Source of the DNA: Cladosporium halotolerans
Taxonomy: Eukaryota
Assembly: GCF_011745625.1 (NCBI RefSeq)
Contig: NW_027191453.1
Span: 806,001-870,000, forward strand
Direction of reading: 5' to 3'
DNA length: 64,000 nucleotides
Shown: piece by piece, positions 7,310-27,604 of the stretch
Layout: every line of letters starts with the position of its first letter
How positions within the stretch are numbered: the first letter of the stretch is position 1
Position numbers and translations under genes: made by a program
The notes under the pieces: model-generated
The model's database searches: none
The model's input: only the letters and a program-made list of their open reading frames with translations
Told to the model about the DNA's origin: nothing

Positions 7310-7543
7310 CTACTCCTCGCGCGGAGTTCCAAAGCCGAAGATGCTCTTGGCCGTCTCCTTCAGGGAGATGTCATTGAAGAGCCATTGGTTGGTGTGGCGG
7401 CCGCATTGCAGGAAAGTGCCTTGGCCCTTGTTGTCATCGCTTCGACGCTTGATGAAGCCCTCGCTGCGTACCGATGGGCTGCTGCTGCGGATCGACTGCG
7501 ATGAAGAAGAGTCCTTGCGCTCGATGTCGTTGTGACTGGACAT
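7310..7543 (-). CDS. Small (77 aa) conserved-looking fungal protein with CGRH.N.WLF motif
   Basis: ATG in strong context (accaaaATG), with TATAAAA on the minus strand at about 7680-7686 and a CA-rich leader. The Ser-rich N-terminus is followed by QCGRHTNQWLFNDIS, a motif type I recall from small Pezizomycotina hypothetical proteins. Confidence 0.6.
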   Translation of the reverse strand: MSSHNDIERKDSSSSQSIRSSSPSVRSEGFIKRRSDDNKGQGTFLQCGRHTNQWLFNDISLKETAKSIFGFGTPREE

Positions 7544-8507
7544 TTTGGTGTTGGTATGTCGTGCTGATCGTATGACTTGCTGTTGGCTAGTGCGTTGAAT
7601 CGTGTATTTGTGATAATTGCTAGTATGTTTGTATGCTATGGAGCTAATCAGGAACACTTCGAACGGGATCCTACCACCCTTTTATAACCCAATGCCACGT
7701 CAACCTGCACTCGACGATATGCATCACGGACATGGCACACGGAAGTGCCATGCCGTCGCCGATACATGGCCGCCTCGTCGCCTGATCCTGCGTAACCAGC
7801 AGCTTCATCTCATTGGGTCACAACGCGAGCGAACCGGTCAGCCCAGGAGTCAGCTGAACCTGTTCCCCACTGGGCTGCAGTAGCACGTTCTTTAGTCGGG
7901 TACGCTGCCGGTGACGCCAAGGGGAGCTGCGACGCTGATTTGGCAATGCCTCTGGCTGTAGGGCTGATCTAAGGTGTAATCTGTACTGGGGAATGCTGCT
8001 ATTCGAGGTGATGATGGCGTCTGATGAGGTGATGAGGCGACGCAACCGACACCACCCATGGTTCACCGCCATTGGCAAACAGAAACACTCCGTCAAACAC
8101 GCAACTCTACACACTGACCACCGCAGAACGAAAACCCACCGTCGCCGCAGTATCCTCGACTTCCGCATCCACGTCACCCTCCTCCGCCGGATGCCAAACC
8201 CCACCACCCCGGCTCCTTCAACCGACCGACCTTGGCAAGGCTGCATGCCCTGCCCCGGCACGCTCACATGACTGGCCGCAACAACGAGCAGCCCTGCAAC
8301 GAGCAGCGTCCGCCGAGCTCTAGGCTTCTGTCCCTATTGGCCACCCCATGCACTGGGACCTGATGTCGCCAGCCGCTACTGCATGGAAGCATGCATGGAA
8401 GCCCCTCGTGCGATCACATGACGGCCTGCACTGCCCGATTTGAATGACGGTGTTGCAGATGCGGCAGGTCGCCGGCGCTTTCATTGGTGTTTGATGCGTG
8501 GAAGGCG

Positions 8508-9031
8508 GCATGGAAGTATGCATTGAAGCTCACGTGCGGAGAGTTGGAGATTGCCCGGGGACGATGCGTTCACATGATAGAGAGATGCGGGCTGCGCTCG
8601 GGCCTTGATGCTGGGCGTACCTCTAGGCCTTATCGTCCCATTGGCGATTGTTGAGAGTCATGTGGACTACATGCAGCGAAGGCGGCATGGAACGATGGTG
8701 GAAGCTAGATGTGACGTGCCAGATTGCTCGGCGAGGCAACTTCAACACGTGCAATTGCAGGCGAGATCGGGCCTGTTCGCTGTGTCCAAACCTCGTAAGG
8801 CAAAGGCTGTCGTTGGATCCCTATGAACATATTGAAGGTAAGGTGCTCTCTCACTACTTGATCGCCAGGCTTCCTCCGAGCCTACTATCGCATCTCAAAA
8901 GTGCCAATCAATTCCCCAACCCCATCTCAGCCGCATCGATCAACGAACAGCAAGCGCTGCGCCTCGCCCTCTCCGATGATGCAGGAGTGCAGCCGCGCTA
9001 ATGCATGGAAGTCTGCACCGAAGCTCACGTG
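8508..9031 (+). repeat. Dispersed 29-bp duplicated element with E-box, within a GCATGGAA motif cluster
   Basis: gcatggaagtatgcattgaagctcacgtg (8508) matches gcatggaagtctgcaccgaagctcacgtg (9003). GCATGGAA also occurs at 8381, 8393 and 8685. Confidence 0.7.
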
Positions 9032-9337
9032 TCAGTCGCCTTGCAGTACCCCTGGGTGAAAGGCAAGGCAGGCGGGGGTTTGGTCATCTCAACTGTGTCA
9101 CGCGCGATTCCAGAAGTTGTGTGGTACATACATACAATACATGCGCGCACGGGCTCGTAAGGGATTGACGTGGCGATGGAAGGGAGAATGCCTCGCCTGA
9201 GCTGAGACGTCAAGAGGGAACAGCATGTGAAGAATGATGATCATACAGTCCAGGGTACATACTCGTGTCGTTCAGTAGCCATTCGATGTCGAAACACGTC
9301 CCTTGCAGTAAAGCCGCGGTTTTTCTCGAAAACCACT

Positions 9338-12027
9338 TCACCTGCCAGCCCCCAACCGGCCCAATCGTTCAGTAACAGCATCCACAAGCGCCGACTCCCT
9401 CTCCAACAACGCCATGACCTGCTGCAACCGTTGCTTCCTAAAGTCAGACGCCACGCCTCCGCTGGCCTGCTTCTTCTCCCGCGACTCCTCGCCCATGCGC
9501 TCGATCGCCTGATCCGCCTGCTTGACAAGCCGCTCCTGCAACTCATCGATCTCGCCGAACCGCGCCGTGAGCGTGCCCTGCGCCTTCTTCCCGCGACTGC
9601 CTCCCGCCGGACTATTAGCAATCTGCAGCAGAGCATTCGGCGACGTCGGCGCAGGCGCATCGTCGCTGAGCGGCGACTTCTCTTTGGCCAAACTCGCCTC
9701 CAGCCTGCCGACCTCGTCCGCGAACGCGCGCTCTTTGGCGCTCAGCTCTTTCCCGCCCAGCATCGCGACCTTTCGGCGCAAGATCTCGACGCGCTCGTTG
9801 AGGTTGCGCGTGTTGGAATTCGCGACCATGATGCGGTGGTCGAGCTTCTCGGTGCCGTACATCTGCGCGTCCTCGATGATCTCGCCTTGCACGCTGGCGC
9901 CGAGCGCGGCCTCGCCGTCGCGCTCGTCGTCGCCCGTCACGGCGTCGACGCGGGCCGCGATCTCGCGCACTTTGGCGACTTGGTCGTAGAGCTCGGAGCG
10001 CAGGCGTTCGCAGCGGCGGAAGAGGTCGGCAGCGGCGAGGTCGAGCTGGTGGGTTTCGTGGGACAGGATGCGGTGGGCGTCTGTGATGATCTGGAGAGTC
10101 TCCGTGGAGAAGCGGAGAGGGGCCTGCATGCTTGCGCGGGCGAGCTCGGACTGCTTGGGACCCAGCAGGTCCGTTATTTGCGAAGGGGTGAAAAACTCCT
10201 TCGGTGGTTGGTATGGCTCTCTGGGCGGAGGCTCTGGCAGTGAGAGCTGTTCGGGTTCGTAAGGGTTAGAAGGGGCCATGGGAATTTCGATGGTGGCGGC
10301 GTAGGGGCCAGAGGGTGTCGCCGTGAGAAGGAAGTAGTTGAGGGAGGTGTCGACGATTGCTGCCGCAGTAGTAGGGTTACTCGCCTCGTCCACGTGTGAC
10401 GACAGTTCGATAGGCTTTTCGATCAGAGTGTTGCCAGACTCAAGGATGACATCCAGCCTGAATTCAAAACCTGCATCGCTGGGGTTGGCTAGCTCGGCCT
10501 CTAGGTCGCCAATCCAGGAGGTGAAATCCAAGCTGTACACGCCGGATGGTGTGGTCGCAAATAGCTCGTAGCGGCCAGCTGGAGAGGACGTAAACGTTGG
10601 CCATGATGTCGCGCTGGCGGTGCCAGACGTGAGATCCAGACTCTCAAACAGGAGCAACTCCTTTCCATCTTCGAGATCATCCATGCCGTACGATCGACTG
10701 CGTTTGACAGGAAGCCATTCGGCCTCAACGCCTTCTAGATCGAGACAGACATGTACCTTGTCAGAGTTGGTCGCGAGGCAGACAATGCCGATGCTGAGCC
10801 CTTCTTCCCCTAGAGGAGCATCCTCCAAGTCCTCACCATACAGTTCTTCGCGGTCGATCGTAGGAGCAATTACATGGATGTCCGTGATCTCGCCGAAGTC
10901 AGGCTCAGGTGACAATGTGAATGGTCCCTGAAGTTTTGGAATGGCACCCAGCCTCTGAGGCCGAGAGTAGATTTCGACGGTGTCAAACTCCGTCGCGCCA
11001 GGCATTGTCAATGGATTCTGAGAGTCCAGCTCAGCAAGCCACTTCGTTTGTGCGTCTGCAGTCCTCTTCTCGGTTTCCGTGGCTTGCGGATCGTGCTGAA
11101 TCGCCCGCGTCTTCGCAACAACGGAAGTGCTGAGCCCTGGCAGCATTGTGCTGGGAACGCGGAATTGGCTGGGCAAGAACGGGCTCAACGCATAAGTGTC
11201 GCCCTCGGTCATGGCAAACCAAAGTGTCATGCTCGACCAGCCATCCTCGTCTTCACTGCCCGAACCACCAAATGCCGCAGCCGCAACTTGCATCTCGACC
11301 TCGTCTGGGGAGAAGCCTCTCTTCGCGCCGTACTTGCTTGCGCTGAAGTCTGCGTTTGTCGAGGTGGCGTTTGCAAGCTTCTTCAGATCGAACGCGATCG
11401 AGGGCTCGTCAAATGTATATCGGTTGTTGATGTCCAGTTCCCACTGGCGCACGCATGCGTCCTTCGTGATCGTAACCAGTGCCGGCGTACCGGGACGTGA
11501 GAGAGGGTGCCAAAGGGCTGTAGCCAGAGGTGCTTGCTCGAGGACGTGCGCAGCCGGTCCAACCTGGAATGATTTGAGGCGAATCTCAGAGTCGTCTCCG
11601 CTGCGGAGGTGCGCAGAGCTTGGGAGGACGCAGACATGGCAGGTGTGAGCCGTCAGAACAGCAAGGAGGCTACCATCCGGCGAGACAGAGAGTTGTGTGA
11701 CGTTCCAAGGCGAAGGCAACTTGAGGACCTGTAGTTTCGTTCAGTGGTTGTTAATTCCATAGCTCCTTATTCCATTCAACAACATACCCTGTATCCTTGC
11801 CCAAGCTGATTCGCGCGGCCATCCTTCTCAGCATCGCGCAATAGTCCCAAGTCACTCCATCGTAGCTCTTTTCCGACCGCGACAAAGACCTCTGTCCCTC
11901 GGTTTGCAACCGTCTTCCTTGCTCCCTCTTGTTGCTGTTTGGCGCCTTGCTGGTTTGGCTGGAAAAGCTTGAAGCCTGGCGATGGTCTCGAGAGCCACTC
12001 GGGCGTATATGAGACAACTTTTGGCAT
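9338..12027 (-). CDS. NUP82: Nucleoporin Nup82/Nup88-like; exons 12027-11788 and 11728-9338
   Basis: N-terminus MPKVVSYTPEWLSRPSPGF, a beta-propeller-like region (ALWHPL...LVTIT.DACVR.WE) and a C-terminal coiled coil. A 59-nt GTATGT...TACAG intron (11787-11729) joins GQGYR to VLKLPSPW. Confidence 0.85.
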
Positions 12028-12296
12028 GGTTCAATAGGCAGTCGGACGGTCCAGTACCTGCGGTGTCTAAGCACAAACGCAGTCGCTGAGATCGTGTCTG
12101 GCTGTTGTTTTTGCGGCCGAGTCGCAAAAGTTGCGGCGCGTAGCCAGCCAAAGCCACGCGCAGCTCACCAAGCAAGCTCCGAGCTTCAGCCTCATCACGT
12201 CGCTGGCTTTCACATGCGACAGCGTCGAGCTTTCCAACCTCACTCAAAGGAATACAACCACTTCGACTGGCGACAGTCAATCTACACCCATCCACC

Positions 12297-12881
12297 ATGC
12301 CTCAATTCCGCATGGGTAGCACCGTCGACCGGCTCGACCGGCCCAGTTCATACGCTATGTCTAAGGCACGCTCATCCTCGCACCACCAGCAACCGCGCGC
12401 AGCTCACTAACAATCCCACCAACAGTACAAGCGCAAGCGCCGCCACAGCAACTCCGAGCGCGCGCCCTCTCCCGACCCCATGGATAAGCTTGCGAACGCT
12501 ACAACTCTGTACGTTGGTAACCTCTCCTTCTACACCACCGAGGAGCAAATCCACGAGCTTTTTGGCAAATGTGGCGGCATCAAGCGTCTTATTATGGGGC
12601 TGGATCGTTTCCACAAGACGCCTTGCGGCTTTTGCTTCGTCGAGTACTACACGCACCAGGATGCATTGGACTGTATGAAATATGTCGGCGGGACGAAGCT
12701 GGACGAGCGCATTATCCGCTGCGACTTGGACGAGGGTTTTGCCGAGGGCAGGCAGTATGGTAGGGGCAAGAGCGGTGGACAAGTCAGAGATGAATACCGC
12801 GAAGAATTCGATCCCGGCCGAGGTGGCTTCGGCAAGAAGATCATGGAGGAGAGGGAGAGATATGCGGACGAATACGACTAA
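12297..12881 (+). CDS. CBC2: Nuclear cap-binding protein subunit 2 (CBP20); exons 12297-12365 and 12426-12881 with a GC-AG intron
   Basis: [23 protein letters not shown]...[18 protein letters not shown] and [18 protein letters not shown]. The upstream exon encodes the conserved [11 protein letters not shown]. Confidence 0.95.
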
Positions 12882-15011: not shown

Positions 15012-16574
15012 ATGGATTCAAACTGGATTGCATATCAACCCAACGATCACCGCGGTACCGCCACGAACAAGAGGACCAGGAAACAAGTCAAATCCGCAGT
15101 CTCGAAGAATGTCCACGCTGCCAGGAGAGCAAAGTTGCGAGCGGAGCTGGAAGAGAAGCAGGCGAAGATGGAGTCAGTAGCCGCTGTAGTCCCGGCCTCT
15201 TCCATCGAGCAAAGTTTGTCAATCGCCATGAGGCCAACATTCGAACATTGCTGATGCCATTGGCCCCGCAGTGATTGGAAACCATGCCCTGGCGAGCTCG
15301 ACTGACCAAGCATTCCTCTGGGCACGAATACTCTACAATCCCGATCTCCACGCAGTGTCCCTATTCGCCCTCTCCACGGACGTGAACCTCTTAGGACTTG
15401 CTGGTAGATCTGGACCAGGTCGACCATGTGCCCTGCTGTTTCGCGGCCAAGCCTTGTTGTGTATCCAAAAAGTCTCGAAGTCGCCCCAACTATCTTACAC
15501 TAGAAATGGAACCTCGACGTTCACATTGTGCCTGCGCGTCTTGGCTGCGTGGGAAAAGGTCGAGCAAAATTTCTTCATGACGTTCTCTCTGCAGTTGCTC
15601 ATACATCCCAGGTCTACGGGAGTGACGCCGCATACGCCGCCCACACATCAGCTCTGCGCAATGTCGAAACAAATGAGGCTAGCTCAGACGGTGTTGATGA
15701 AAGACACATGATCACAGTAATGGAACACGTCGTCAGCACGATCCGCAAGCGATTCGACGACCTACCCAGGCTCATCTCCTCAGACGGCCAACTAGCCATC
15801 GCGCCACACCTAGACCAGATGTCGACTCGCCCCAGCGGATCTTTGGCTCTAAAAACACCCACCTTCGAAATGTTCAATCACTCCCGCTCCGAAACCAGAT
15901 CCTTACTCTTCCTCCTCTCCCGCCTCGCAAGCTACGACTTCAAGAGCCCCAAAGCCTGGCCCGCACTGCACGAAATGTGCCTGCTGATGTTCGCCTGGCG
16001 CCCCAAAAGTCGCCCACCAGGAAGCTGGAAACTCCTCGACAGCGCCAACGACCTCGAAGATCTAGCGCTATACCACTTGCGTGCCGGAATGGTGTCAATC
16101 CTAGGAACGTTGTAAGTCGCCCCGTTCTCGCCACCAGCACATCACGACCGCTGACCGAAACCCTTACCCCACAGCACCTTCGCCATCGGCACCGCGACCC
16201 GCGACGATGGGTACTTCCACGCTTCGGACGCGATGGACATCCACTACACGGAAATGCTCGGCTTGGAGACCGAAAACCTCACCGGCACGCGCTACGCCGA
16301 GCCCGCGCTCTGGGCGATTTTCATGGTGACGACGGCTGCGACGCCGCGGCTGCGCACGCCGCGGAGTCTGAATCTGATCCGCACGCTGCTGCGATGCGCG
16401 GGTGTTGAAAGTTTTGAGGGGCTGGAGAGTGTGCTGAGGAAGTATACGTACCGCGAGTTCGTGCATCGGAGTCTGGCGTGGGAGCTGTATCAGGCGGTGA
16501 ATGAGAGTGGGCCGAGTTATGGGAGTGGGGGGTTGAGGGAGCTGGAGATTTCACTGGCGGATTTGATGATATGA
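15012..16574 (+). CDS. Hypothetical fungal protein; 4 exons (15012-15213, 15272-15558, 15612-16111, 16175-16574)
   Basis: Three phase-compatible GT-AG introns join four ORF-track fragments into one frame. The basic N-terminal RKQVKSAVSKNVHAARR segment resembles the N-termini of fungal transcription-factor-associated helical proteins. Confidence 0.7.
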
Positions 16575-17182
16575 AAACGAAGGTTCAGGCTGGCATCTTC
16601 TTGGTTGCTGTGGAGGCGCCATACGACAGTGGCCGTGCCGCAGGGACGTGGCCTTGTTCCCGCAACTGGGTCGTCAATGCCAGTCGAAGTCAAACACCGA
16701 TTTTCTGGCCATACTGGTGTGACACTGTGCCGGACTGCCAGGCAGTTTTTTCAAGTCGTCACAGCAAGGCATTCTATGCAATCCATTAAGTCGGGAAGGC
16801 GATGGCATTTAATTGCTCCCTTCGCACTCTCGAGGGGATATGGATCAGCCCAGGCAGCACCGGATGAAGCCTTTTTGCTGTGCACATCGCCAGACAGACC
16901 ATCTTCCAAGACCTCGGTCACACGAAAATGGCGCCAATCTGCATGCAAGACGCCACAAGCGAGACGCGCTAAGCACGATCAGGCGGCATCCAGTATGCGC
17001 TGGCGGGGGATCCTCAGCCTCATTGCTGAAGATCCTCTGATGCCTTTACCTCTCTACTCGAAGTGCATGAGGACGTGATCCCAAGACGTGAGGCAAAGCG
17101 TCACGAAGGGCCATCTTTACCAGCATCTGCTAGTACCTTATTCTCCGTCCCGCCTAAGCGCCGGCGCGGGCGCCTGCTCGAC

Positions 17183-19783
17183 ATGGCCGCCGAGGGGTCG
17201 TCCTGGAGAACCGTCTCTGTCGCAGACAGCGCTCGTGCGCATTTGGGCCATAATTTCAGTGGGTTCCACGGCATTTTCGAGGTTTCCTGGAAATGCGAGG
17301 GCTTGGATGGCAGACGGCGCTGACAGCTACATGTGCATGTAGATCAATACGAGGCGAATCTCTCGGGCCAATTCCATGCGCTGACGGTCCAGGGCGACCA
17401 GCACAATTACTTGTGAGATTTTTGTTGTTGCCAGTCGCAGTGCATGAGTGAGATGCTTGAAGCTGACGTGAAAGTAATATCCAGTGGCGAAGGCCCTTCG
17501 CGCACCACCAACGCTCAGCCAGGGCGATGCTTCTCCGTGCCCGTCAGCAATGTGCCGAGCTATACGGAGAGGCCGCACTTGTCAAGAGAGCTGGAAGAGA
17601 AGTTGAAGAAATCGTACGGTGGAAACCCAGTAGCGCATGCTGTCGTGGTGGTTGGGCTAGGCGGCACTGGCAAGACGCAGTTGGTGCGGCGCTATATCGA
17701 ACATCACGAGGGAGAGTACTGCGCGGTTCTCTGGATCGATGTAAGGGACCAGAAGACGGCGAGAGCGAGCTACGTGCGATGCGCCGCTGAGCTGGGGTTG
17801 CCGTGCCAGCCTTCGGCGAGAGACGCGCCGGTGCAGCAGGAGCCTTCTGTTCAGGCGGTGCTGGCTCGGTTGCGGAGTGAGGATGGGGAGAAAGGGTGGT
17901 TGGCGGTCGTGGACAACGCGGACGATCTGTCGTGGAACGTGAGCGCGCTTGTGCCGAAGGGCAAAGCGGGGACGGTGATTGTGACGAGTCAGGATGGGAA
18001 TGCCTCGCGACTTTTTGGTGGACATGTTGCAGCTGTGAACGTAGACGCCATGGAGCCCGCGGAGGCGGTGAAGCTGATGTCCGACAGCATCGACGAGGCG
18101 GGATGCCTTCGGGACAACGGTCTGCAATTGCTGAACAGGATCACCGAAGAACTTGACCGATTGGCACTTGCGATCGATCTGGCCGCAGCCCAGATCCGGG
18201 CTGATCTGCTGAGTTCCGGAGGCGATGTTTACGAGGAGGCCGTTGTGGTGGATGCGCTCAATCGGTATATTTCTGACTACCAACGGAACCGAGAGCGCCT
18301 GCTGCGCGACGACGAGTTCGCGTACACGGCTACGTACAAGAAAACCGTGCGGACAGTGTGGGACACAAGTCTGGCGTCGATTCGACGAGTCGAGGAGCGG
18401 CAGCCGGGGGTCTATCCCATCGACCTGCTCAACTTCATGACATACTTCAATCGAGCGAACGTGCAGAACGAGCTCTTCCGACTCGCCAGTCTTGGCTTGG
18501 AAATAGGCTGCCGTCGAACACGAGCGGTCGTCCCGCCGTGGCTGCAGAGCCTCCTTTCTCGGGACGAAAATGACAACTGGGACGACCACACGTATCGGAA
18601 GACCGTGGAGGTGTTGGTACGGTACAGGCTCGTCCGGCCTGTGTCGGGGACTTGGCGAGGATTGACTATGCACGGGCTCGTGCAGTGGTGGGCAACACGG
18701 GAGCTGGACTCGCAGGAGTATTGGCCGGCGTACCTCACGTTTCTGGTTGCGGTCTGTTGCTGGGTGACCTCACACACCGACAACATGATATTTCGACGGC
18801 ACCTGACGGTTCACTTACCTTCTAGCGGGTCGCTGCTGAGTCAACGGCTGAGGCTCCTAACTGAATATTCGCTCGCTCAGGTGTGTATAGAATTCAGCAT
18901 CGTCTGGGCGCAGGAATTCAGAAACAGTGAAGCAACGCAGCTGCTAGAGGGAGCGGTGGAAATCTTGAAGACATGCATTGGTGAGAAAGACCCGATGACG
19001 CTTTGTGTCATGAATACACTCGCTCTAGCATACCATTCTATGGGCCGCTGGAATATTGCCAAGGATGTAATCGAATTCGTGATCCTGAACCAGGAAGAGA
19101 TCTTGGGCGTCAGTGGTCAAGATACACTGACCAGCAAAGAGACCCTAGCTAAGGTTTTGCTACGGCAAGGCAATGCTCCCGGCGCACTGGCTCTCGAGAA
19201 GGATGTATTGCGTGCCCGGAAGGAAGCGGTAGGGGAGGATCACCCTGACGTCCTGAGCAGCATCCAGATCATGGCGGCAATTCACGAGGAACTAGGGCAG
19301 CCCAAGAAAGCGGCAATGTTCAGGACGCAAGCCGTGGATCTACAGAGAAGACTTCATGGCGATGAGTCTAAAGGCAGAGTCATCATCGCAAGGGAGATGG
19401 CAAGAGTGTTTTCAGATCAAGGCAGGTGGAAGGAGGCAGAAGATGTCTACACGGAGGCAATTGCGGCAACGACCGAGATAGTCGGAGACTATCACCCGGA
19501 AACGCTGAGAATGTTGGTGGGCCTAGCACTGACATACTCGAGGCAAGAGCGGCGGAAGGAGGCGAGCGACTTGATGGGAGAAGTTGTGGAAAGAGCCTTA
19601 AGCTCGCTTGGAATTGAGAATTCATTCACGTTGGCCACCGTGAATCTCCTGGCACAGGTGATGTCCAAGCAAGGGCGCTGGGAGGAGGCGAAAGTGCTGC
19701 AAGTTAAGGTAGCAGAGGCGAGGTCGACGTTACGGGGAGAGAAGCACCCGAGCACGATCGAAGATTATGTTGACCTTGCCTAG
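17183..19783 (+). CDS. Fungal NLR (STAND NB-ARC + TPR) with N-terminal HET-s-like amyloid motif; exons 17183-17258, 17343-17412, 17485-19783
   Basis: P-loop GLGGTGKTQL, Walker B WLAVVDNADD, VIVTS, LALAIDLAAA, MHGLVQ and kinesin-light-chain-type TPRs (GEDHPDVL, GDYHPETL, GRWEEA). Two phase-compatible introns (GTGGGT..GCTGAC..TAG; GTGAGA..GCTGAC..CAG) add the N-terminus MAAEGSSWRTVSVADSARAHLGHNFNQYEANLSGQFHALTVQGDQHNYFG. Confidence 0.88.
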
Positions 19784-20193
19784 ATTAAGGTGGTCTTTGT
19801 CTGAAGCGAGAGGGCTCTCCGCAAAGGAATGAGAGGCAAAGGCACGGGCAACGTGACTGGGTGGCGAGGCATCAAATCGATACACCTCTTCCGCCTTCCG
19901 CCTTTACTCTGAGAACAAATACCGCGCGAAAGTGGTTCTTTGAAACGACCCTACAGTCACGCCGTGGAATCAATCAACCAAACCCTACATCGTCTGGGTC
20001 TGTCATTCGTTCGCAATACCTGCATCCGCCGTGCCTTCTTCCTTGTTCCGAACGCCCAACGCTTGCTGCTGCGAACAGGCCAAGCGCAACTTTTGACATT
20101 ACTCGGACAGACCGATCGCATCCTCTGGTGATCATACTTGCGCAAGAATGATAGTTTCGAAATGGGTCTAGTTGCATAATGGCTCGTCGGAGT

Positions 20194-20359
20194 CTAAGGT
20201 AAATGGCCAGATTGTCCCTTGCGATCGTGTTGGAAAGCACTAGGCCCTGTCTGATTGACAAATGCCTTCAATCCCAGCCTGAGGTACATGGCCAAACTGA
20301 CCCTCTGCGATCGAGTTGAAAAGCACTAGGCCCCGTCCGATTGACAAATGTCTCCAATG
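20194..20359 (+). repeat. Imperfect tandem duplication, 2 x ~85-86 bp
   Basis: The unit ctaaggtaaatggccag...gcgatcgtgttggaaagcactaggccctgtctgattgacaaatg at 20194 is repeated as ctgaggtacatggccaa...gcgatcgagttgaaaagcactaggccccgtccgattgacaaatg at 20279. Confidence 0.85.
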
Positions 20360-21448
20360 GCATCGCTCCTCGTCCAAGAACAACCACTTTCCTTACGTCA
20401 GGCGGATCGGCTTCTGCAAATGTACAACATGGCTAGCGCTGGATGAGATCAGCACTCGGAACGGCTGACGTCTAAGATGTAGGCTTCAGCCGTGCAGGTG
20501 GGCTTTCACCCCGGTGATGATATCTCGATCGGTCTCACATTAATACGAAGATCTGTAGACAGGCAGTAGCGGCTGCGACAGCGCGGGCTGGTGTCGATGA
20601 GCGCGATGTGACATCCCCTGCCGGGCTGGTATTCTGGTCGGATATGTCTATCATGAGCGTTCGTATAGGCGAAAGGAGCGCTCGTGACCGTGATGACGTC
20701 CAGGACCAACCATGCCGTTTTCAGACGGAGGAATACGGGCGGCAGATCGCTGGGGATGCAGTCAATGACATGCGCGAGGGCGTGGGCGCAGGGTGGTATC
20801 AATGAGACATGGACGTTGGAGAGCCGAAGCGGGGAGTTCGCGAATGGCTTGAGCAAGCAACGCCCTGCGCGGGTGAAGACCAATGCGCGCGCTGGACGAC
20901 GGCGGAACGGGCGGTAGCGCATACGGCGTGAGGATGGGGCGCCGAGAATAGGCACAACCCGCCCTGCCGCATGTCGATCCAGCAGCCGACCCGGGGTGGT
21001 TTGCGCGCAGTTGCGCTGGCCAGCGCTGTCGATGCGAGATCCAGACGCTGTGATGCCTGTCAGCACGCTGCATCCCTCGATCGTCCGGTGCGTGTTGGGC
21101 CCTAGGAGTTTAGGGATGGTCTAGCAAGACGGCAAGGACGGCAGCACGCACTGCGCTCCGTACTGCGCCTGTGCGATAAGAATAACAACGTCCGCCTGCC
21201 TCGCATCCCACTGCTGCACCGCCGTCTCACGTTATCCGTCTCACCGTGTTCGTCTCACGCCGCAGGCCCATACAGGAGACAGGCCCACTGCCGAAACGCA
21301 CCCCAGCAACGCCTGCGCCCGCCTGCGCCCGCCTGCGCCTATCTCTGCTATACTTGGCACAGCGCCCAAGGCCCGCGTCTATTAGACTGCTCCGCCCCGG
21401 CTTTCGCATGTCCTCACGCGCCGGCCAGCCCAGCGCTCTCCTCCCACC

Positions 21449-22624
21449 ATGTTGATCGACACCACCCTCAGCGCCATGGTCCATGGACTGCCCACGCCGC
21501 CCGACAGCGCTGGCAGCAGCAGCTCTGGCGCGCCCACCGTCACAACATGGCTCATGGACACCCGCACCATGTGGCCCGGCGACAACATCTTCTCCGCCGA
21601 CGGCGCCGCCAAGGCCATGGCCCTCGTCTCGACCGCCGAGCAGACGGTCATCACCTCGAAAATGTTCATCGCCGACGCCCGCATGAGCCTGGCCTCCGCC
21701 CTGCTCAAGCGCCTGTTTATCAGCAAGACTCTCGGCATCCCGTGGAAAGAGGTGAACATCGGAAGGAAGGGAGACCCCAAACACGGCAAGCCCTGCGCCG
21801 TCGACTCCTCCAACGTCCCCATAGACGGCATTGACTTTAACATCTCTCACCAGAACGGTCTGGTTGCTCTGATCGGTTTCGACGGAAGGAACCACGGACC
21901 ACCTCGGACATTCAACAACCCTCTCGGCTACCCTTCGCCCGGCGCCGCAGTCAGCGACCAGGTCACCGTCGGCGTGGACATTGTCTGCGTCAACGAGCGC
22001 GACGACTACCGCACCATTGAGGAGGAGGGCCTGGACGGCTGGGTCGACATCTACGACATCATTTTCAGCGACGAGGAGCGCTGGAGCATGAAGTACGACG
22101 TCGACTATGTTACCCAGCTGGACGGCACACACCTGACCGCTGAGGACCTCGGCCGCCACGACCGCTGTATCGCTCGTAACAAAAACCTCCTCTTCCGCAC
22201 ACCCAGCGGCAACCAGGTCTCTCTCAACTCCGAGCAGCTGATCGAGGCCAAGCTCCGCCGCTTTTACACATACTTCTGCTACAAGGAGGCCTTCATCAAG
22301 CTGTCCGGTGAGGCTCTTCTGGCACCCTGGATCAAGTGTCTTGAATTCTTCGGCGTGCGCTCTCCCAAACCTGGCGTCCAGGCCCGCTGCTCCACCCACG
22401 GCACCTGGGGCGAGGAAGTCGAGGATGTCGAGGTGCACCTGCACAAGAAGGAAGTCAGCGATGTGAAGATGAAGATCCAGGCTTTCGAAGAAGACTTCAT
22501 GATCTCCACTGCCATGCAAGGCGACGTCGAGGGCTTGAAGGTCCCCGGCTTCACCACTCTGGACCTGAACGGCGATGTCATGAACTACGCCGAGAACAAC
22601 CTTAACATCAAGCAGAAGCCTTGA
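21449..22624 (+). CDS. PPT1: Sfp-type 4'-phosphopantetheinyl transferase (NpgA/Ppt1/Lys5 family)
   Basis: Motifs DARMSLASALLKR, HGKP, FNISHQNGLVAL, VGVDIVCVNER and FY.YFCYKEAFIKLSGEALLA. The start could alternatively be the second Met (MVHGLPTPP). Confidence 0.92.
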   Translation: MLIDTTLSAMVHGLPTPPDSAGSSSSGAPTVTTWLMDTRTMWPGDNIFSADGAAKAMALVSTAEQTVITSKMFIADARMSLASALLKRLFISKTLGIPWKEVNIGRKGDPKHGKPCAVDSSNVPIDGIDFNISHQNGLVALIGFDGRNHGPPRTFNNPLGYPSPGAAVSDQVTVGVDIVCVNERDDYRTIEEEGLDGWVDIYDIIFSDEERWSMKYDVDYVTQLDGTHLTAEDLGRHDRCIARNKNLLFRTPSGNQVSLNSEQLIEAKLRRFYTYFCYKEAFIKLSGEALLAPWIKCLEFFGVRSPKPGVQARCSTHGTWGEEVEDVEVHLHKKEVSDVKMKIQAFEEDFMISTAMQGDVEGLKVPGFTTLDLNGDVMNYAENNLNIKQKP

Positions 22625-22937
22625 ACCACTCGCCACAGTAGAACCTCGTGCAATCCACTGCACTGGTTCCTCGCGCACACAAACAAACCAAGACTGGATC
22701 CCGTCAGACGACATATGCGTCTAGCCACACCATCCCCTAGTGTCTAGTACTTCGCCGAGAGCTCGCGAAGTCCGAGCCGGCTCACAAAGAAGACGCACAC
22801 ATGAGACAGCGCATGTCTCAGTCACCTCGACGCCGCAGGCACGACAGTGAAGTCCACCTGCCGCGCAGACGGTGCAAAGCGCTCAGCGCTCGCACTTCAT
22901 CCTGCGCTTGACGACACCGGACCGCGCAAAAAGCACA

Positions 22938-23381
22938 ATGTCGCCACCACAGGAGTCCCCCACCAGCCTGCTCGACCGGACAATCCGCAACCTCGAGCAA
23001 GCGCAAAGCTCCACCCGGCAACACGCAACAGCGCGCGACGTCCTGCGCCCAGCCAGCGACGCAGAAGACCCTCCCGCAGCCTCAGCCATGGCCAGCCCAC
23101 CAGCCCCCACAAACCTAACAACCGACTTAATACGCTCCACCGCCCTCCTTCACAACCTGCGCGCTCGCAACGCGATCCTATCCGCCGACCTCGCTCGTGC
23201 CTCAGACTCCATGGCTCAGCGCGAGAGCAAAGCGGATGCAGCGAAGCGCTGCAAGACGAGGTGGGCGGTCACGGCGCTGTGCTCGTTTGGGTTGTGGGCG
23301 GTTTATCTGGTTTGGTGCTGGTATATGAGGGTCGAATTTGAGTATATTCGGCGGAGGAGGGGGGAGATGTTTGGGTTGTGA
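22938..23381 (+). CDS. Hypothetical coiled-coil protein with a near-C-terminal transmembrane helix (tail-anchored-like)
   Basis: ATG in cacaATG context. A heptad-like segment (LLHNLRARNAILSADLARAS) is followed by hydrophobic WAVTALCSFGLWAVYLVWCWY and a basic tail (EFEYIRRRR). Confidence 0.6.
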   Translation: MSPPQESPTSLLDRTIRNLEQAQSSTRQHATARDVLRPASDAEDPPAASAMASPPAPTNLTTDLIRSTALLHNLRARNAILSADLARASDSMAQRESKADAAKRCKTRWAVTALCSFGLWAVYLVWCWYMRVEFEYIRRRRGEMFGL

Positions 23382-23746
23382 GGGGGAGGCTTTTGGAGTT
23401 TTGGAGGGGAAGACGGGAGGGAATTGGGGTTGGAGTTTGAGGGGTTTGAGAGGGATTGGGATTTTCAGGGGGATGGAGTTGGGGTGAGGGTGATTGTAGG
23501 GATAGTTTGGAATGAAGAAAACTCGGGAACCGCACTCGCTCTTTCTCACTCTTTTCATTTCTGTGTTCAAGACGTCCGAATCCATGACAGTGAAGTCAGT
23601 TTAGGTCTCAGCTGGCTCAAATTGCTTGACGCTCGCATTGCGCTTTTATGATACTATGCCAATAGCCCTTCCTCGCCATACACTATACAATCACAACCTC
23701 CCCTATAATCCAAGTTGCCCTCCCCCCCAACGCAACGCACATCCAC

Positions 23747-26410
23747 TTAATCCTCAGTCAAATCGCCATACTCCCACATACCCCTCCTCTCCTCCTTCGC
23801 CACGCGCTCCCTCTCCTTCAGATCCTGCAGCACGCTCGCGTTCCCCCTCTCGAACGCCTTCAGCTTCTTCGGCACCATCGCCAACCCCTCGCCGACAACC
23901 TCCGCGTTCAAGCTCTCGCTCTGGTTCCGCGCCTGCGGGTCCAGCAGCGTGACCCACATCAGATTCTCGCGCGTGTCGTTGAAATCGACATTAGCCACCA
24001 GCGCCCTGTCCAGCGCCAGGTCGTTCAGGAACGAAACCGAATCGGCGAGGTACTCCGGGTTGGTGGTGGGGAACTGCGCGAAAGACAGCGCGGCGTCGAC
24101 GGCCTGCGCGCGCAGCCTCTGCACGCCGAACTTCTCGGCGGCGAGCACGCGCAGCGCGCTCCACGGCTGCGTCTCGCTGTTGCCGTAGTCGATGTAGACG
24201 ACCTCGGAGGTCTTGGCGTCGCGGTCGTTGCGGCGCACGCGCGCGCGGTACCACTGGCCGTCCTGGGTGAATTTCGCGGAGACGATGTCGCCGGCCTTCG
24301 GGGGGCCGGGGAGCGGCTGCGAGGAGCCCGGGGAGAGGTGGAAGGAGGCGAAGTCTTTCATGAGGGTGTCGAGGGAGGACTTGCTGGAGCCGAGGAGCTG
24401 GAGCTTGAGGCGGGCGGTGGTGGGGTCGACGTGGGTGACGGTCACGTCTTTGTAGTCGCGCTTGGGGGGAGTGGCGGCGTCGCCGTTGGTGGGCTCGGCG
24501 GCGGGGGTGTCGTCGTAGTCGTCGCCGTTTTCGGCGGCGTCTTGCGAGGGGTCCCAGTTCTGCCAGAGGCCCTTGCGGAGGTCTTTGGCCTTCTGCTCGG
24601 CGGCGAAGAGCTCGGCGGCGTTGCCGGTCTTTTCAGCGCTGTAGGCGTGCACGGAGGCCAGGCCTTCTTCGACGAGGAGCTTGGCGAAGTTCTCGCGGTT
24701 GACGTAGAGGGTGCCGATGAAGCCGCCGACCTTGTCGTTGTCCTCGACGTCGACCTCGACGTCGCGCTGCATGCAACGCTTGATGGCGAAGTCGTGGGCT
24801 TCCTGGCCGAAAGGCTCCGCGGTGTCCTGAGGGCCGCGGGCAGAGCGAGGGGCACGGATGCCGCCGAGGACGAAGGTGAGCTTGGAGTTCTCGCGGGGAA
24901 TGAGGATGGTGAATCTGCTGCCGCTCTTCACGAAGTCGACGATGGCGGGGACGCGCTTCTGTCTTGAGAGAAGGCTCATCTGGCGCTTCGCCTTCTCGAG
25001 GGATTCGCTGTGGTCGACGTACGTCTGGGGCTTGGGAGACTTGGGGTTCCACATGCCCTTGCCCTCCTTCTGTGCAGCCTCCTCAGCCGCAAGGAGCTCG
25101 TCGTAGATAGGGCTGCGGTCGGTGTCGTCCATGCGGTGGCGGATGACGGAGCAGTAGCCGCTCTCGACCATCATGAGACCAACGTTCTTACCGTTGTAAG
25201 AAACAGTGGCCATCTCACGCTCGTCGTAGCCCTCGGTAGCGGGACGCTTGCCATCGATCACAACCTTGACATGCTTGCCGATGAGCCTCTTGCGCAGGAG
25301 GTCCTTGGCTTCAGCGCCGAAGGGCGATTGCTTAGGGTCGGTGGGCTTCGGCTGGCGGACGCTGGAAAGGTTGATGCGCTTCTCAGCGCCAGCCTTGTTG
25401 CGAACGAACAGTGTGTCGGCGGAGAAAACACGTGAAACGACAGCATCGATCTCGCCGCCAGTAGCCTTCTTCTGTGTAACGTTGTTCGTGAAGACACCCG
25501 CCTGGCGCTCCCTGGCCGAGCGCTCAGCCTGTCTCAGCTTACCCATCTCCGCACCGAGCCATGTTGAGTGATGGTCGACGCAGCGAGCAAGACCCTCCTT
25601 GAGCAAGAATTCCGCAATGTTTCCAACAGGGTGTCTAACCTCACCAACCAGGAGCTGGTTGGGCGAGATGCCCAATATCCGCACAGAGACGCCTCTTTGC
25701 AGTATCCTGTCCTCGACGAACGACTGACTCTCGTTACCCCAGGGCTCTGCGGGCTGCGTGGTGCCGTCTGAAGGGTTCGTTCTCGCGGTCGTGGGTGCCT
25801 TGATGCCAGCTACGAGGACGGTCGTTTGGATGTGTTGCGTGGGCGTGACCATGAGCCTGCAGATCAGCCTGTCGCCGCTCAGGACACGCTCGACAATCGC
25901 ATCGATCGGCTGGCCCTTGTGCGTCTCGGAGAAAGCCTTGGTGTCCGGCATTTCCCTCGCATTTTGAATCTCGGGCAGCTTCGACGCCCACAGACCCTTC
26001 TCGTCGGCTCTTGCGTGTGCCTCCAGCGCTTCTAATCTCTCGAGCAGCTCGGTCGCCTGCGGGCTCTCGGCCTTCCTGTCCGCATCGTCTCTGAGCTTCG
26101 CCCAGCCCTCGCTGACGATGGCGTCGGGGAGCAGCTGGCCATTCTGGAGCAAGACGATGCCGTAGTCACGCGGGGCGCCGCCAGACTTCTGCGGGATGCT
26201 GTAGAGGACGGAGAAGCGCACGAACTTGCCGACGCACAGCTTGCGGATGAAATCGCGGGACTGGAAGGAGCCGGGCTCGTCGTTGTTCAGGCGGGGCGCA
26301 TTGATGAATGCGAGGCTGAGCGTGCGTTCCTGCTTATTCTTGTTCTGTAGGATCAGAGTGTCGCCGGAGAGCACGCTCTTCACCTTGGCTTCCATCTGCG
26401 GCGCGGACAT
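23747..26410 (-). CDS. SND1: Tudor staphylococcal nuclease (Tudor-SN/p100)
   Basis: Repeated SNase domains (AKVKSVLSGDTL; AIVERVLSGDRL; AVVSRVFSADTL; AIVDFVKSGSRF), Tudor WYRARV...VVYIDYGNSE and C-terminal RGMWEYGD. The ATG is at 26410; the ORF track's 5' extension starts at a non-ATG codon. Confidence 0.95.
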   Translation of the reverse strand: MSAPQMEAKVKSVLSGDTLILQNKNKQERTLSLAFINAPRLNNDEPGSFQSRDFIRKLCVGKFVRFSVLYSIPQKSGGAPRDYGIVLLQNGQLLPDAIVSEGWAKLRDDADRKAESPQATELLERLEALEAHARADEKGLWASKLPEIQNAREMPDTKAFSETHKGQPIDAIVERVLSGDRLICRLMVTPTQHIQTTVLVAGIKAPTTARTNPSDGTTQPAEPWGNESQSFVEDRILQRGVSVRILGISPNQLLVGEVRHPVGNIAEFLLKEGLARCVDHHSTWLGAEMGKLRQAERSARERQAGVFTNNVTQKKATGGEIDAVVSRVFSADTLFVRNKAGAEKRINLSSVRQPKPTDPKQSPFGAEAKDLLRKRLIGKHVKVVIDGKRPATEGYDEREMATVSYNGKNVGLMMVESGYCSVIRHRMDDTDRSPIYDELLAAEEAAQKEGKGMWNPKSPKPQTYVDHSESLEKAKRQMSLLSRQKRVPAIVDFVKSGSRFTILIPRENSKLTFVLGGIRAPRSARGPQDTAEPFGQEAHDFAIKRCMQRDVEVDVEDNDKVGGFIGTLYVNRENFAKLLVEEGLASVHAYSAEKTGNAAELFAAEQKAKDLRKGLWQNWDPSQDAAENGDDYDDTPAAEPTNGDAATPPKRDYKDVTVTHVDPTTARLKLQLLGSSKSSLDTLMKDFASFHLSPGSSQPLPGPPKAGDIVSAKFTQDGQWYRARVRRNDRDAKTSEVVYIDYGNSETQPWSALRVLAAEKFGVQRLRAQAVDAALSFAQFPTTNPEYLADSVSFLNDLALDRALVANVDFNDTRENLMWVTLLDPQARNQSESLNAEVVGEGLAMVPKKLKAFERGNASVLQDLKERERVAKEERRGMWEYGDLTED

Positions 26411-27604
26411 GGCGGGCGAATTGGCGGTTCGTGGGTATTTATCGATGTGGGGGAAGCTCGTGAGTGATGGGCCGATCTGATGGGATGGAGGAGGATTGGT
26501 GTCGCCAGGGGTTGATGGCAGTTGTGAATGAGATGCTCTGGCTTTACAGAGGAGCTTTAATGAAGTTGGGAAAATGCAATTGAGCTGTATTGTGTGAAAG
26601 AGGTGATGTTGTTTGGTCGTGTGCCCATCGAACTTTTGCTGCAACCACCGAGCCACCTGGCATTCACCCGTCGAAACGTGGGGTCGGGGAAAGAACAAAG
26701 CATGGGCGAGCAGCGGACCCCACCGCTAGGGTTGTGAATGTGTGAAGGTACCTTACTGTGTACTACATTTCCGAAGGTCTCAACTCGTCATCCAATGATT
26801 GATATTTTGTGCCGCCACAGCTGTCCCAGATTCAATAAGGTCTGGATGGTCAAAGGAGATGGAAGTACGTCAACTCGTTTTGGAGGGTCAGACAAGCTCT
26901 CGCATGGGGTTTCATGAGCCTCTCGAACATCACAAAGTGAGGTAATGCAATGCAACGGTCTTCGAATAAAGGAAAGTTGTTGCGACACGTGAAAGACCAG
27001 CTCCCCATCACCAAAAAATCAGATGTAAAAAGCCAGGGTATACTGACATGTCGAAGAGATAGTGCCCTATCTAGGCACCATCACATTTGGAGTAAACAAC
27101 CACCAATTCTGCGAATTCGAAGACTGTGGCACGCCGGCTCCCATTTCCAAGGATAAACTTGAGTTGTATGACAGAAGAGGAGCACGTATTTCTCACGCCG
27201 CTGCTCCGATGCCCGCCTTCTAATTAAACCGACAAACAACAACCTTTCTCAGCAGCCTGCCTCTCCGAGCCCGGACGGCACTCTGACTAGGTGTCTTCTC
27301 ATCAGGGCCTCGGTTTGTACCAATGTGTCTAGCGGAACGAAATCCTCACTCACCGTTCCTGCTTTCAGCATTACCAACAACGATGCCATCAACGCCAAGG
27401 GTCTACGCCCCACTGCTCCCCATCCCAGTGCGATGCACCACCAACCATGCCGACAATGCCGCTGCGTCCTGACTTGCAGCTCCTGCCGCCAACGTCCCCG
27501 TCAACCGATGCCTGACTTGAACGTGTGTGGACATTGGTAGTTGTGAGTGGACTGCAAAGGCATTCGCAGCAGGGTATCGCCCACAATGGAGGCAGCGTGA
27601 GGTG

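Follow-up and report, generated by a model that had tools for sequence, protein, structure and literature searches.

A mis-annotated NB-ARC/TPR NOD-like receptor gene of Cladosporium halotolerans with two putative amyloid-signalling motifs on tandem mini-exons

Introduction

In fungi, the counterpart of necroptosis signalling is amyloid templating from NOD-like receptors (NLRs) to pore-forming proteins. The described systems closest to the locus analysed here are NWD2/HET-S of Podospora anserina and the HRAM1 pairs, for example the HET-s homologue and NLR of Fusarium graminearum, in which the motif on the receptor is a single 21-residue r0-type unit (PMC4518210). The HRAM unit is 21 residues long; its glycine at position 19 does not vary, positions 5, 8, 10, 16 and 18 are hydrophobic and position 15 is R or K. 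The repeat pairs of the effectors are separated by a loop of 6-18 residues (PMC4518210). In the same survey 98 of the 155 HRAM effectors adjoin an NLR, so adjacency is common and not obligatory. HRAMs on NLRs mostly begin at positions 5-9, and NLR/effector pairs that are not adjacent have been reported for HRAM-type motifs (PMC9815663). Among the other families, the PP motif (HELLP/PNT1) is defined by a GxQxG core (PMC5485727) and PUASM by the pattern FxGxGxQxxGxGxF together with its association with PNP_UDP (PMC9815663), and the motif families catalogued to date number just four or five (PMC12261475).

Here we describe an NLR gene within a window of 64,000 nucleotides, the whole stretch of C. 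halotolerans DNA that was analysed. A sequence-only reading had proposed that a hidden first exon gives this receptor a HET-s-like R0 motif, with which it would signal by amyloid templating; the HET-s R1 and R2 strings used for that comparison agree with the supplementary table of PMC4518210.

Results

Gene structure and transcript evidence

The gene occupies positions 17183-19783 of the forward strand, and its three exons join into an open frame of 2445 nt. Its features are the following.

17032..17182, forward strand: 5' untranslated leader, reaching back at least to 17032, where record 20 of the X3 contigs starts, preceded by adapter letters
17183..17258, forward strand: exon 1, start codon and motif A, phase 1 at its end (from translation and the X3 splice joint of 17258 to 17343)
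17259..17342, forward strand: intron 1, 84 nt, with donor GTGGGT, a CTGAC branch box and a TAG acceptor
17343..17412, forward strand: exon 2, a divergent copy of motif B, phase 2 at its end, followed by donor GTGAGA
17413..17484, forward strand: intron 2, 72 nt, with donor GTGAGA, CTGAC and a CAG acceptor
17485..19783, forward strand: exon 3, short linker, NB-ARC, helical arm and TPR_10/TPR_12 repeats, stop codon at 19781-19783
19784..20751, forward strand: probable 3' untranslated region, X3 record 22 continuing to 20751 at unchanged depth

The first exon lies outside the long ORF, as had been claimed, and positions 17183-17257 give the 25-residue peptide proposed for it, the exon running one base further. 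In the spliced message 17183 is the earliest ATG in frame with the NLR body, with G at -3 and G at +4, and the leader ahead of it carries a short upstream ORF (ATG at about 17040, in-frame ATG at about 17067, TGA at about 17076). The first 49 residues thus come from two mini-exons with one short motif each, the in-frame part of exon 2 (17345-17410) translating as QYEANLSGQFHALTVQGDQHNY. Behind them, a Pfam NB-ARC match covers approximately 17591-18100 (E 1.7e-6), with the P-loop GLGGTGKT at 17654-17677, and TPR repeats follow at approximately 18926-19699 (TPR_12, E 7e-38; TPR_10, E 1.9e-32). This order, a P-loop NB-ARC NTPase and then TPR repeats, is that of a fungal NB-ARC/TPR NOD-like receptor of the STAND class, and 202 homologues of the NLR were found at E<=1e-3. 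The Pfam search returned no effector domain ahead of the P-loop, in agreement with the earlier description of a receptor lacking one, and no Pfam match in any ORF of 19784..20751.

Both proposed introns have GT..AG joints at their exact borders in contigs of the run X3. We presume from its contigs that this run is RNA, since they show unequal gene depths (36/194/81), intergenic holes and adapter letters at contig ends. It comes from a close relative and not from the same strain (for example, 143 letters differ across 17485-19708), and the evidence consists of assembled contigs. One contig joins 17258 to 17343, skipping 84 letters with a shorter side of 70 letters, and another joins 17412 to 17485, skipping 72 with a side of 30 and flagged 'between: not known'; in addition, the first letter of X3 record 22 falls exactly at 17485. 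A third contig (17383-17514) retains intron 2, at a depth of 23.4 versus 16.6 for the spliced joint. An in-frame stop lies in this intron right behind exon 2, followed by an in-frame ATG at 17444, and retention would truncate the motif-bearing protein. The automatic models P0003 and P0004, of the window gene and of its 88% orthologue, both begin with MSEMLEAD at that ATG, inside intron 2. The intron position and phase are common to the window gene and locus L001, where the donor context of exon 2, TACTT followed by GTGAGAT, is identical.

Motif A, a probable HRAM r0-type unit on exon 1

The 21-residue unit of motif A corresponds to codons 4-24 (17192-17254) and carries the HRAM skeleton throughout, with W5, V8, V10, R15, A16, L18 and G19 (W8, V11, V13, R18, A19, L21 and G22 of the peptide). 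It is rich in S and H and has few D, E or K, which matches the description of r0 motifs, and it is a single N-terminal copy, the P-loop of the NB-ARC domain lying some 80 residues further on. With a curated Fusarium r0 (SSNSVASVFASDSSRVHIGNN) it has eight of 21 residues in common, and with the r0 of NWD2 (MANQVRSIHAEGQARVHVGNS) five of 21; the string ARAHIG occurs in two curated r0 motifs. The subfamily signature of N, Q or H at position 3, and likewise the N or D after G19, is absent from the window copy, which has S3 and H20, and among the homologues P0011 has N at position 3 and L023 has D at position 20. The V8/D12 coupling described for r0 is present in just two of six motif-A members.

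Five more distinct homologues open with motif A, namely P0011, L001/L002, L014/L015, L023 and the second NLR of L009/L010, with NB-ARC domains 40-57% identical. In the six aligned sequences R15, H17 and G19 are invariant, and the hydrophobic positions are kept except for T10 in P0011. P0207 is a further copy, with its Met 19 residues before the G versus mostly 21 elsewhere. Of the 127,996 six-frame positions in the window, 10 carry the skeleton h..h.[hT]....[RK]h.hG. This rate, about 8e-5 for each position, equals the expectation from composition, and at such rarity it is unlikely that the skeleton falls by chance among the opening few residues of an NLR.

The HET-s-like character claimed for this peptide is thus borne out by its fit to the HRAM definition and to curated r0 motifs, and it does not extend to profile or structure matches. 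A Pfam search, part of the profile scoring proposed with that claim, returned zero families at E<=10 for the window peptide, and so neither PF17108 (HET-S) nor PF11558 (HET-s_218-289). Among the six members only L023 matches these models, with E 3.4e-4 and E 8.9e-4 respectively, both below the gathering scores. HET-s was not recovered at E<=10 in PDB searches with the window peptide, the L023 peptide or a six-sequence profile (A2), which matched only bL35 and a viral glycoprotein, at E of about 1. Furthermore, a motif-A profile (A6) run against 5.8 billion proteins returned, among longer proteins at E<=10, only P0011/P0078 and P0207 and no motif-A effector. In that search only a near-identical 21-residue match can reach E<=10, and the lack of an effector among the results therefore says little about its absence.

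Like NWD2, the window gene carries its unit right at the N-terminus of a repeat-bearing STAND NTPase that has no other effector domain; its architecture is NB-ARC/TPR and not NACHT/WD. Unlike NWD2 and the HRAM1 pairs, it has S3 and H20 and no Pfam match for its own copy, it has no adjoining HeLo gene with r1/r2 repeats, and its motif A sits on a mini-exon of its own and is followed by a second, different motif.

Motif B on exon 2 and its pairing with HeLo genes in relatives

The second mini-exon, and the motif that it shares with neighbouring HeLo genes of related loci, had been overlooked in the sequence-only reading. On NLR N-termini the core of motif B reads I-x-N-Q ... Q-x-I-x-G-G-Q-H. Exon 2 of the window can be aligned with no gap to motif B from 16 sequences of the loci and from annotated proteins, and keeps the Q and L-T-V-x-G-D-Q-H-N-Y, with N for R/K and G for the N of NQ. 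It is the most divergent of the 17 aligned copies, and its identity to the HeLo copy is 23%.

Of the 35 related loci, 17 have motif B ahead of the NLR body, and 9 have a HeLo gene (PF14479, E 7.7e-37 and 1.8e-38) divergently upstream of the NLR. All seven HeLo genes with their 3' end on the contig terminate in motif B. In Hortaea, the annotated neighbours KC345_g4599/g4600 and KC343_g2333/g2332 likewise have it at the NLR N-terminus and the HeLo C-terminus. These motif-B NLR/HeLo pairs are from Dothideomycetes. Most of 60 HeLo gene models run through the last intron and lose the motif. NLRs with only motif B occur in 15 of the 35 loci (the majority), and L023 has only motif A and no B exon; A and B can therefore stand alone. 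In L009/L010 a HeLo gene with motif B and an NLR with both motifs are some 4 kb apart, and the B half of this NLR (IYGGQH) resembles that HeLo more closely than does the B half of the neighbouring B-only NLR. In the NB-ARC tree, whose backbone is unresolved and in which the stops within L023, L030, L011 and L021 were entered as X, the A-bearing genes are not one clade, and the window gene stands with its 96% identical orthologue on a long branch.

Motif B appears to be a narrow, HeLo-paired family. In a search of 1.84 billion representatives its profile retrieves 25 proteins at E<=1e-3, and it has no match to any Pfam model at E<=10. Typical motif-B strings are missing from the table of 155 HRAM proteins (PMC4518210) and from the searchable supplementary files of PMC9815663, to which that search was confined. 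One bearer, P0042 (taxid 1507870, length 957, NB-ARC/TPR/CHAT domains), is probably OQN96102.1, judging by species, length and domains; the sole bearer traced in the 2022 census is a 957-aa NB-ARC/TPR/CHAT protein of that species, labelled 'noasm'.

Like the HELLF/FNT1-type HRAM (the Pa_3_9900 row, HRAM4 in PMC4518210), motif B has a polar residue at 18 (Q in the window) before G19, hydrophobic residues at 17 and 8 and N or Q at 3; unlike it, motif B is not hydrophobic at 5 or 10 and not basic at 15, ends in GGQH and is present on the HeLo protein as a single copy and not as a double repeat. With PP, sigma and PUASM it shares the form of a short N/Q/G-rich motif common to an NLR N-terminus and an effector C-terminus, single-copy on the effector, although it goes with HeLo and not with PNP_UDP as PUASM does. 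Membership in these three families was considered and rejected, since neither GxQxG nor FxGxGxQxxGxGxF occurs in exons 1 and 2 and there is no Pfam match at E<=10. The Pfam models of the sigma motif are NACHT_sigma and Ses_B, and they are among those without a match. In having two unlike amyloid-like motifs in tandem on a short N-terminus, the window gene resembles the Tuber melanosporum NLRs with NLR19 and NLR34 (PMC9815663); the motifs and the lineage are different, and the Tuber motifs have no known effector partner, whereas motif B has HeLo partners in relatives.

Search for a partner

No HeLo, HeLo-like, SesA, SesB, PNP_UDP or patatin domain was found in the window ORFs searched (75 flanking ORFs; 80 of the 122 ORFs of at least 130 aa). 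The 64-kb window contains neither the RxxRWG hallmark, nor an adjacent divergent HeLo gene ending in motif B, nor a HeLo, HeLo-like or sesA protein with two C-terminal repeats of the kind that defines an HRAM cognate. Outside the window, no motif-A effector was seen in the 35 loci or in the last 70 residues of 60 HeLo homologues, and two HRAM-like cores 18-50 residues apart occur neither in any of the loci nor in the window.

Discussion

We consider it probable, at roughly 60%, that this gene is a three-exon NB-ARC/TPR NLR whose two mini-exons each carry an amyloid-signalling-type motif, A of HRAM r0 type and B of a narrow family. It would thus be a mis-annotated NLR with tandem amyloid-signalling motifs; the kind is known, and its orphan form with two motifs on mini-exons is unusual.

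It is highly improbable that motif A, a short peptide at the N-terminus, resembles the HRAM pattern by chance. The skeleton is loose, its ten occurrences in the window come at the rate expected from composition and the window peptide has no profile match; against this, the motif recurs in homologues with R, H and G invariant, L023 matches two HET-s Pfam models and the position of the motif is exactly that of r0 motifs. Protein synthesis from the ATG at 17444, which would make the upstream exons a leader or upstream ORF and the product an NLR without an amyloid motif, is suggested by the two automatic models and by the deeper contig with intron 2. The joint of 17412 to 17485 takes out that very ATG, however, and on a message that begins at 17032 or earlier ribosomes reach 17183 first. 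Furthermore, P0011, an independently annotated homologue, has A and B in frame, both peptides are conserved across paralogues with NB-ARC domains only 40-57% identical, and L001 shares the intron position, phase and donor context, all of which makes a start at 17444 very unlikely.

An orphaned relic, in which the motifs descend from a paired NLR/HeLo ancestor and the copy moved away from its partner, is decaying and has lost signalling, fits the lack of an effector in 64 kb (versus a HeLo gene beside the NLR in 9 of 35 related loci), the divergence of the window motif B, the long branch shared with the 96% identical orthologue and the decay seen elsewhere in the family, with in-frame stops in the motif-B exons of the L011 NLR and the L031 HeLo gene. 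We nevertheless regard it as unlikely, as every skeleton position of motif A is kept, the three-exon frame is intact and the relative behind X3 still splices. The changes found in relatives within the two mini-exons, in a list that is incomplete (17211, 17344 and 17375), are one synonymous and two outside the skeleton, and non-adjacent HRAM-type pairs are on record (PMC9815663). It is a possible, though somewhat doubtful, alternative that A and B form one two-rung unit like r1-loop-r2 of HET-s and serve only the motif-B HeLo pathway. In L001 and P0011 about seven residues separate A (residues 4-24) from B, within the loop range of 6-18 residues (PMC4518210), neither the 35 loci, the 60 HeLo homologues nor the profile search yielded a motif-A effector, and the A+B NLR of L009/L010, some 4 kb from a motif-B HeLo, has a B half better matched to it than that of its B-only neighbour. 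Yet A-only (L023) and B-only NLRs exist, a profile-profile comparison of A with B finds no likeness (probability 0.5%), and in the window B follows A directly, without a loop. A complex prediction for four copies of residues 1-70 of P0011 scored 0.02 versus a mark of 0.32 and counts neither way.

If the receptor has two amyloid-signalling motifs, as we prefer, a ligand would drive oligomerisation of the NB-ARC/TPR body and bring the N-terminal motifs close together, the clustered motifs could stack into a cross-beta nucleus, and this nucleus would template the matching motif on a HeLo-type executioner encoded beyond the window, with membrane attack and cell death as the expected outcome. The exon structure with its splicing and frame, the motif patterns, their conservation in paralogues and the NLR/HeLo pairing of relatives are observed. 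No effector with a matching motif lies in the 64-kb window, so templating of a partner is inferred, as are amyloid formation, the existence and identity of that partner here and the cell-death outcome. A further proposal, which we hold as speculative and rather unlikely, is that the N-terminus is a modular, exon-encoded 'address label' of two independent amyloid units, an HRAM1-like A and a HeLo-paired B, the latter perhaps a fifth or sixth family in fungi that the catalogues lack, or else a new branch of the HRAMs. If this were true, receptors with A, with B or with both would arise as mini-exons are gained and lost, and a single NLR could either signal to two executioners or hold a self-contained two-rung nucleus. 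Keeping intron 2, which has a stop and then an ATG, could toggle between a signalling-competent and a motif-less receptor.

More generally, gene callers can overlook amyloid motifs that sit on mini-exons. Gene models skip such exons or lose the motif of the HeLo protein, so that censuses which start from predicted proteins count too few cases of amyloid signalling, above all in Dothideomycetes. In addition, motif B offers a concrete, testable HeLo/NLR motif pair, and the natural A-only, B-only and A+B receptors are useful for studying the evolution of specificity and cross-seeding barriers.

Gene structure and splicing

The NLR gene is composed of three exons which, joined together, give an open frame of 2445 nt:

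17183-17258, + strand, exon 1, encoding motif A; donor GTGGGT after it
17343-17412, + strand, exon 2, encoding a putative motif-B unit; donor GTGAGA after it
17485-19783, + strand, exon 3

Translation of 17183-17257 gives MAAEGSSWRTVSVADSARAHLGHNF, the same peptide that the sequence-only reading had assigned to exon 1. A CTGAC branch box is present in both introns, and the acceptors are TAG (intron 1) and CAG (intron 2). The downstream long frame (17417-19783) codes for an NB-ARC NTPase with the P-loop GLGGTGKT, followed by TPR_10/TPR_12 repeats (Pfam: NB-ARC, E 1.7e-6; TPR_12, E 7e-38).

Four sequencing runs (X1, X2, X3 and X22) were compared over 16800-26700 as assembled contigs, not reads; all of them diverge by a few percent from the window sequence and come from relatives, not from the same strain. 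X1, X2 and X22 continue across the introns and are DNA-like. X3 behaves like RNA, with uneven depth (36 on the NLR gene, 194 on the next gene and 81 on the one after), holes between genes and Illumina adapter letters at contig ends. One X3 contig fuses 17032-17258 to 17343-17412, skipping 84 nt (GT..AG, shorter side 70 letters), and a second joint goes from 17412 to 17485, skipping 72 nt (GT..AG, side 30, flagged 'between: not known'); the long X3 contig has its first base exactly at 17485 and its last at 20751. These joints indicate that both introns predicted from the sequence, 17259-17342 and 17413-17484, are removed at their exact borders in this relative. Additionally, the X3 contig that begins at 17032 covers a leader containing a 12-codon upstream ORF (17040-17078), within which lies another in-frame ATG.

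Beside the spliced form, X3 has one that keeps intron 2, in a single 132-nt contig (17383-17514). Intron 2 holds a stop immediately 3' of exon 2 and, downstream of it, ATG 17444, the sole other in-frame ATG upstream of the P-loop. Because of these elements and the retaining contig, a motif-less isoform is conceivable through intron-2 retention and this ATG. The automatic models of both the window gene (P0003) and its 88% identical orthologue (P0004) start at 17444; this position lies within an intron that is spliced out in X3, and we consider it highly unlikely that translation starts from there.

Motif A and the HRAM definition

In PMC4518210, the HET-s-related amyloid motif (HRAM) is defined as a 21-residue unit with an invariant G19 and hydrophobic residues at 5, 8, 10, 16 and 18, usually R or K at position 15, and N, Q or H at position 3; on NLRs it is a single N-terminal copy (r0) with few D, E or K residues and many S and H. 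Taking G22 of the window peptide as position 19, motif A has W5, V8, V10, R15, A16, L18 and G19, together with four S and two H, and departs from HRAM usage at position 3 (S instead of N/Q/H) and position 20 (H instead of N/D). It is identical at 8 of 21 residues to the curated Fusarium r0 SSNSVASVFASDSSRVHIGNN of the PMC4518210 table, and at 5 of 21 to the NWD2 r0 MANQVRSIHAEGQARVHVGNS as well as to each HET-s repeat; the repeat sequences given in the sequence-only reading agree with the same table. The string ARAHIG is found in two of its curated r0 motifs. The r0 coupling V8/D12 holds in the window peptide, yet in just two of the six motif-A members, and was not taken as support.

Across the six frames of the window (127,996 positions) the bare HRAM skeleton turns up 10 times, which is the rate expected from composition, and therefore a skeleton match taken by itself is weak evidence; weight comes from the place of motif A right after the NLR start codon. 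Profile tests gave no support for the exon 1 peptide: no Pfam family, HET-s models included, was found at E<=10. There was also no PDB match to the peptide, and a profile built from six motif-A sequences did not reach HET-s in the PDB.

Motif A was also found in homologues. The annotated protein P0011 (Cladosporium sp. NU13) begins MAPEHNHFERIFTGGNSRAHIG, and among 35 metagenome loci with related NLRs (NB-ARC 26-58% identical, 40-58% in 34 of them) motif A opens the NLR genes of L001/L002, L014/L015 and L023, and in L009/L010 it opens a second NLR that lies in the opposite orientation. A further copy, in the protein P0207, has its Met two residues nearer the G. In the six-sequence alignment M1, A2, R18, H20 and G22 (peptide numbering) are invariant, the five core positions are hydrophobic in all sequences save for a T at position 10 of P0011, and the other positions are variable. 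A Pfam search of 13 peptides matched that of L023 to PF17108 (HET-S, NLR-side model; E 3.4e-4, 20.9 bits vs a cut-off of 24.3) and to PF11558 (HET-s_218-289; E 8.9e-4, aligned to the second repeat), and returned nothing for the other twelve. Pattern, position and family context, not profile score, point to motif A as a putative member of the HRAM theme. Set against the skeleton rate on one side and the recurrence in front of related NLRs on the other, a chance resemblance appears extremely improbable.

A second motif shared with HeLo genes

The sequence-only reading placed the borders of exon 2 correctly and overlooked the motif encoded there. The in-frame part of this exon reads QYEANLSGQFHALTVQGDQHNY, which aligns gap-free to motif B (consensus F-x-N-x-x-S-x-I-x-N-Q-x-x-Q-Q-x-I-x-G-G-Q-H). 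On the NLR side, 17 of the 35 loci carry motif B (15 B only, 2 A plus B), as do the annotated NLRs P0015, P0021, P0042, P0054 and P0093. Three loci (L014, L015 and L023) have motif A with a shortened B-like exon or none, neither motif was detected in 11 by the patterns used, and in 4 the upstream sequence was too short for motif scoring.

Nine loci (L004, L006, L007, L009, L010, L011, L012, L027 and L031) have a HeLo gene (PF14479; in L010, E 7.7e-37) upstream of the NLR in divergent orientation, and in all seven with its 3' end on the contig this gene finishes with a last mini-exon carrying motif B, for example TTFNNHDNTKIMNQNDSQTIYGGQHVSF followed by the stop. This copy is single, C-terminal and missed by most gene models: motif B is visible in 7 of 60 HeLo homologues, and most of the others look like intron read-through at the end or truncation. 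Divergent HeLo/NLR pairs with a common I-x-N-Q ... I-x-G-G-Q-H motif are L004, L006, L009/L010, L011, L012 and L031, and the protein pairs P0141/P0015 and P0143/P0021. Furthermore, NLR and HeLo genes have neighbouring tags in Hortaea werneckii (KC345_g4599 and KC345_g4600; KC343_g2333 and KC343_g2332, respectively), both HeLo proteins ending in motif B. In-frame stops interrupt the NLR-side motif-B exon of L011 (about 1692, +) and, internally, the HeLo motif-B exon of L031 (about 1100, -), possibly by decay of the signalling label or by sequence error. In L010, two receptors flank one executioner within 2362-12772, with a transposon between:

2362-4649, - strand, A+B NLR
within 2362-12772, ORF of 472 aa with no assigned function
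7079-8215, - strand, DDE_3/Tc1-type transposase
8562-9396, - strand, motif-B HeLo gene
from about 9800, + strand, B-only NLR

Run against 1.84 billion representatives, a 17-sequence motif-B profile retrieved 25 proteins with E<=1e-3, most of them ORF calls of 29-160 residues spanning the mini-exon, indicating that the family is narrow. P0205 (218 residues, six FHSYASRIGSK copies) scored E 2.4e-4 in this search and is probably a repeat-driven false positive.

With HRAM, motif B has in common N3, G19 and a hydrophobic position 8 (HRAM numbering), and its hydrophobic-then-polar pair at 17-18 resembles the HELLF-type row of the PMC4518210 table; unlike HRAM, it is not hydrophobic at 5 and 10, nor basic at 15. 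Its strings were not found in the 155-protein HRAM table of that paper, and profile-profile comparison of motifs A and B gave a probability of 0.5%. Other identities were ruled out: PP for want of a GxQxG core, sigma because motif B has no Pfam match whatsoever and hence none to sigma models, and PUASM because its pattern is absent. In a 2022 census (PMC9815663, supplementary file 2), a 957-residue NB-ARC/TPR/CHAT protein (taxid 1507870) is marked 'noasm'; P0042, which starts with motif B, agrees with it in species, length and domains and may be this protein. Another row gives a partial HRAM (NLR13) match at 18-31 of a sister species' 624-residue TPR NLR, so HRAM-like labels on NB-ARC/TPR-type receptors of this group are already on record there. 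Motif B may belong to an amyloid signalling family that is not yet catalogued, or form a new branch within HRAM.

Genomic context and evolution

No HeLo, HeLo-like, SesA, SesB, PNP_UDP or patatin domain was found in 75 ORFs within about 3 kb either side of the NLR, nor in 80 of the 122 ORFs of at least 130 residues in the rest of the window (the 42 dropped were alternatives that overlapped or were shorter). The window likewise lacks the HeLo hallmark RxxRWG and further copies of motifs A and B, and the NLR is therefore an orphan within these 64 kb. It is surrounded by housekeeping genes (SNO amidotransferase, an unassigned gene, phosphopantetheinyl transferase and Tudor-SN); the gene directly upstream (15504-16571, +) has two long ORFs with no Pfam match at E<=0.05 and no assigned function. 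An ORF 38 kb away (57627-59408, -) encodes a Tle1-like phospholipase catalytic domain (DUF2235) with a strong score (E 4.2e-84), with no amyloid-like motif seen at its end.

N-termini in the family are A-only, B-only or A+B, with one mini-exon per motif; L023 is the A-only case, with a single intron. In both the window gene and L001, the A exon is followed by a phase-1 junction and the B exon by the donor context TACTT|GTGAGAT. In the NB-ARC tree, for which the stops in four rows (L011, L021, L023 and L030) were replaced by X, the A-bearing genes do not group together, though with an unresolved backbone; the window gene and P0004 occupy their own long branch (mutually 96% identical over 443 columns). 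Strains differ at the repeat end of the receptor: in X1 and X3, 82 other letters stand in place of the last 77 bases around the stop codon (19708-19786), parts of the TPR region (18786-19447) are missing or replaced in X2 and X22, and P0004 ends 18 residues later than the window protein.

Weighing the orphan position against the open frame and the splicing in X3, we consider it unlikely that the window NLR is a decaying orphan. A slightly better case, still a tentative one, can be made for motifs A and B working jointly and solely in the motif-B pathway, a possibility that overlaps our main reading; A-only and B-only genes are both present in the family. The reading we favour, with a probability of roughly 0.6, is a real NLR that bears two amyloid-signalling units at its N-terminus and works by templating a HeLo-type executioner encoded outside the window; motif B would link this Cladosporium receptor to the HeLo-paired family. 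By analogy with the NWD2/HET-S paradigm (PMC4518210, PMC5485727), these units would form amyloid and template the executioner, leading to cell death.
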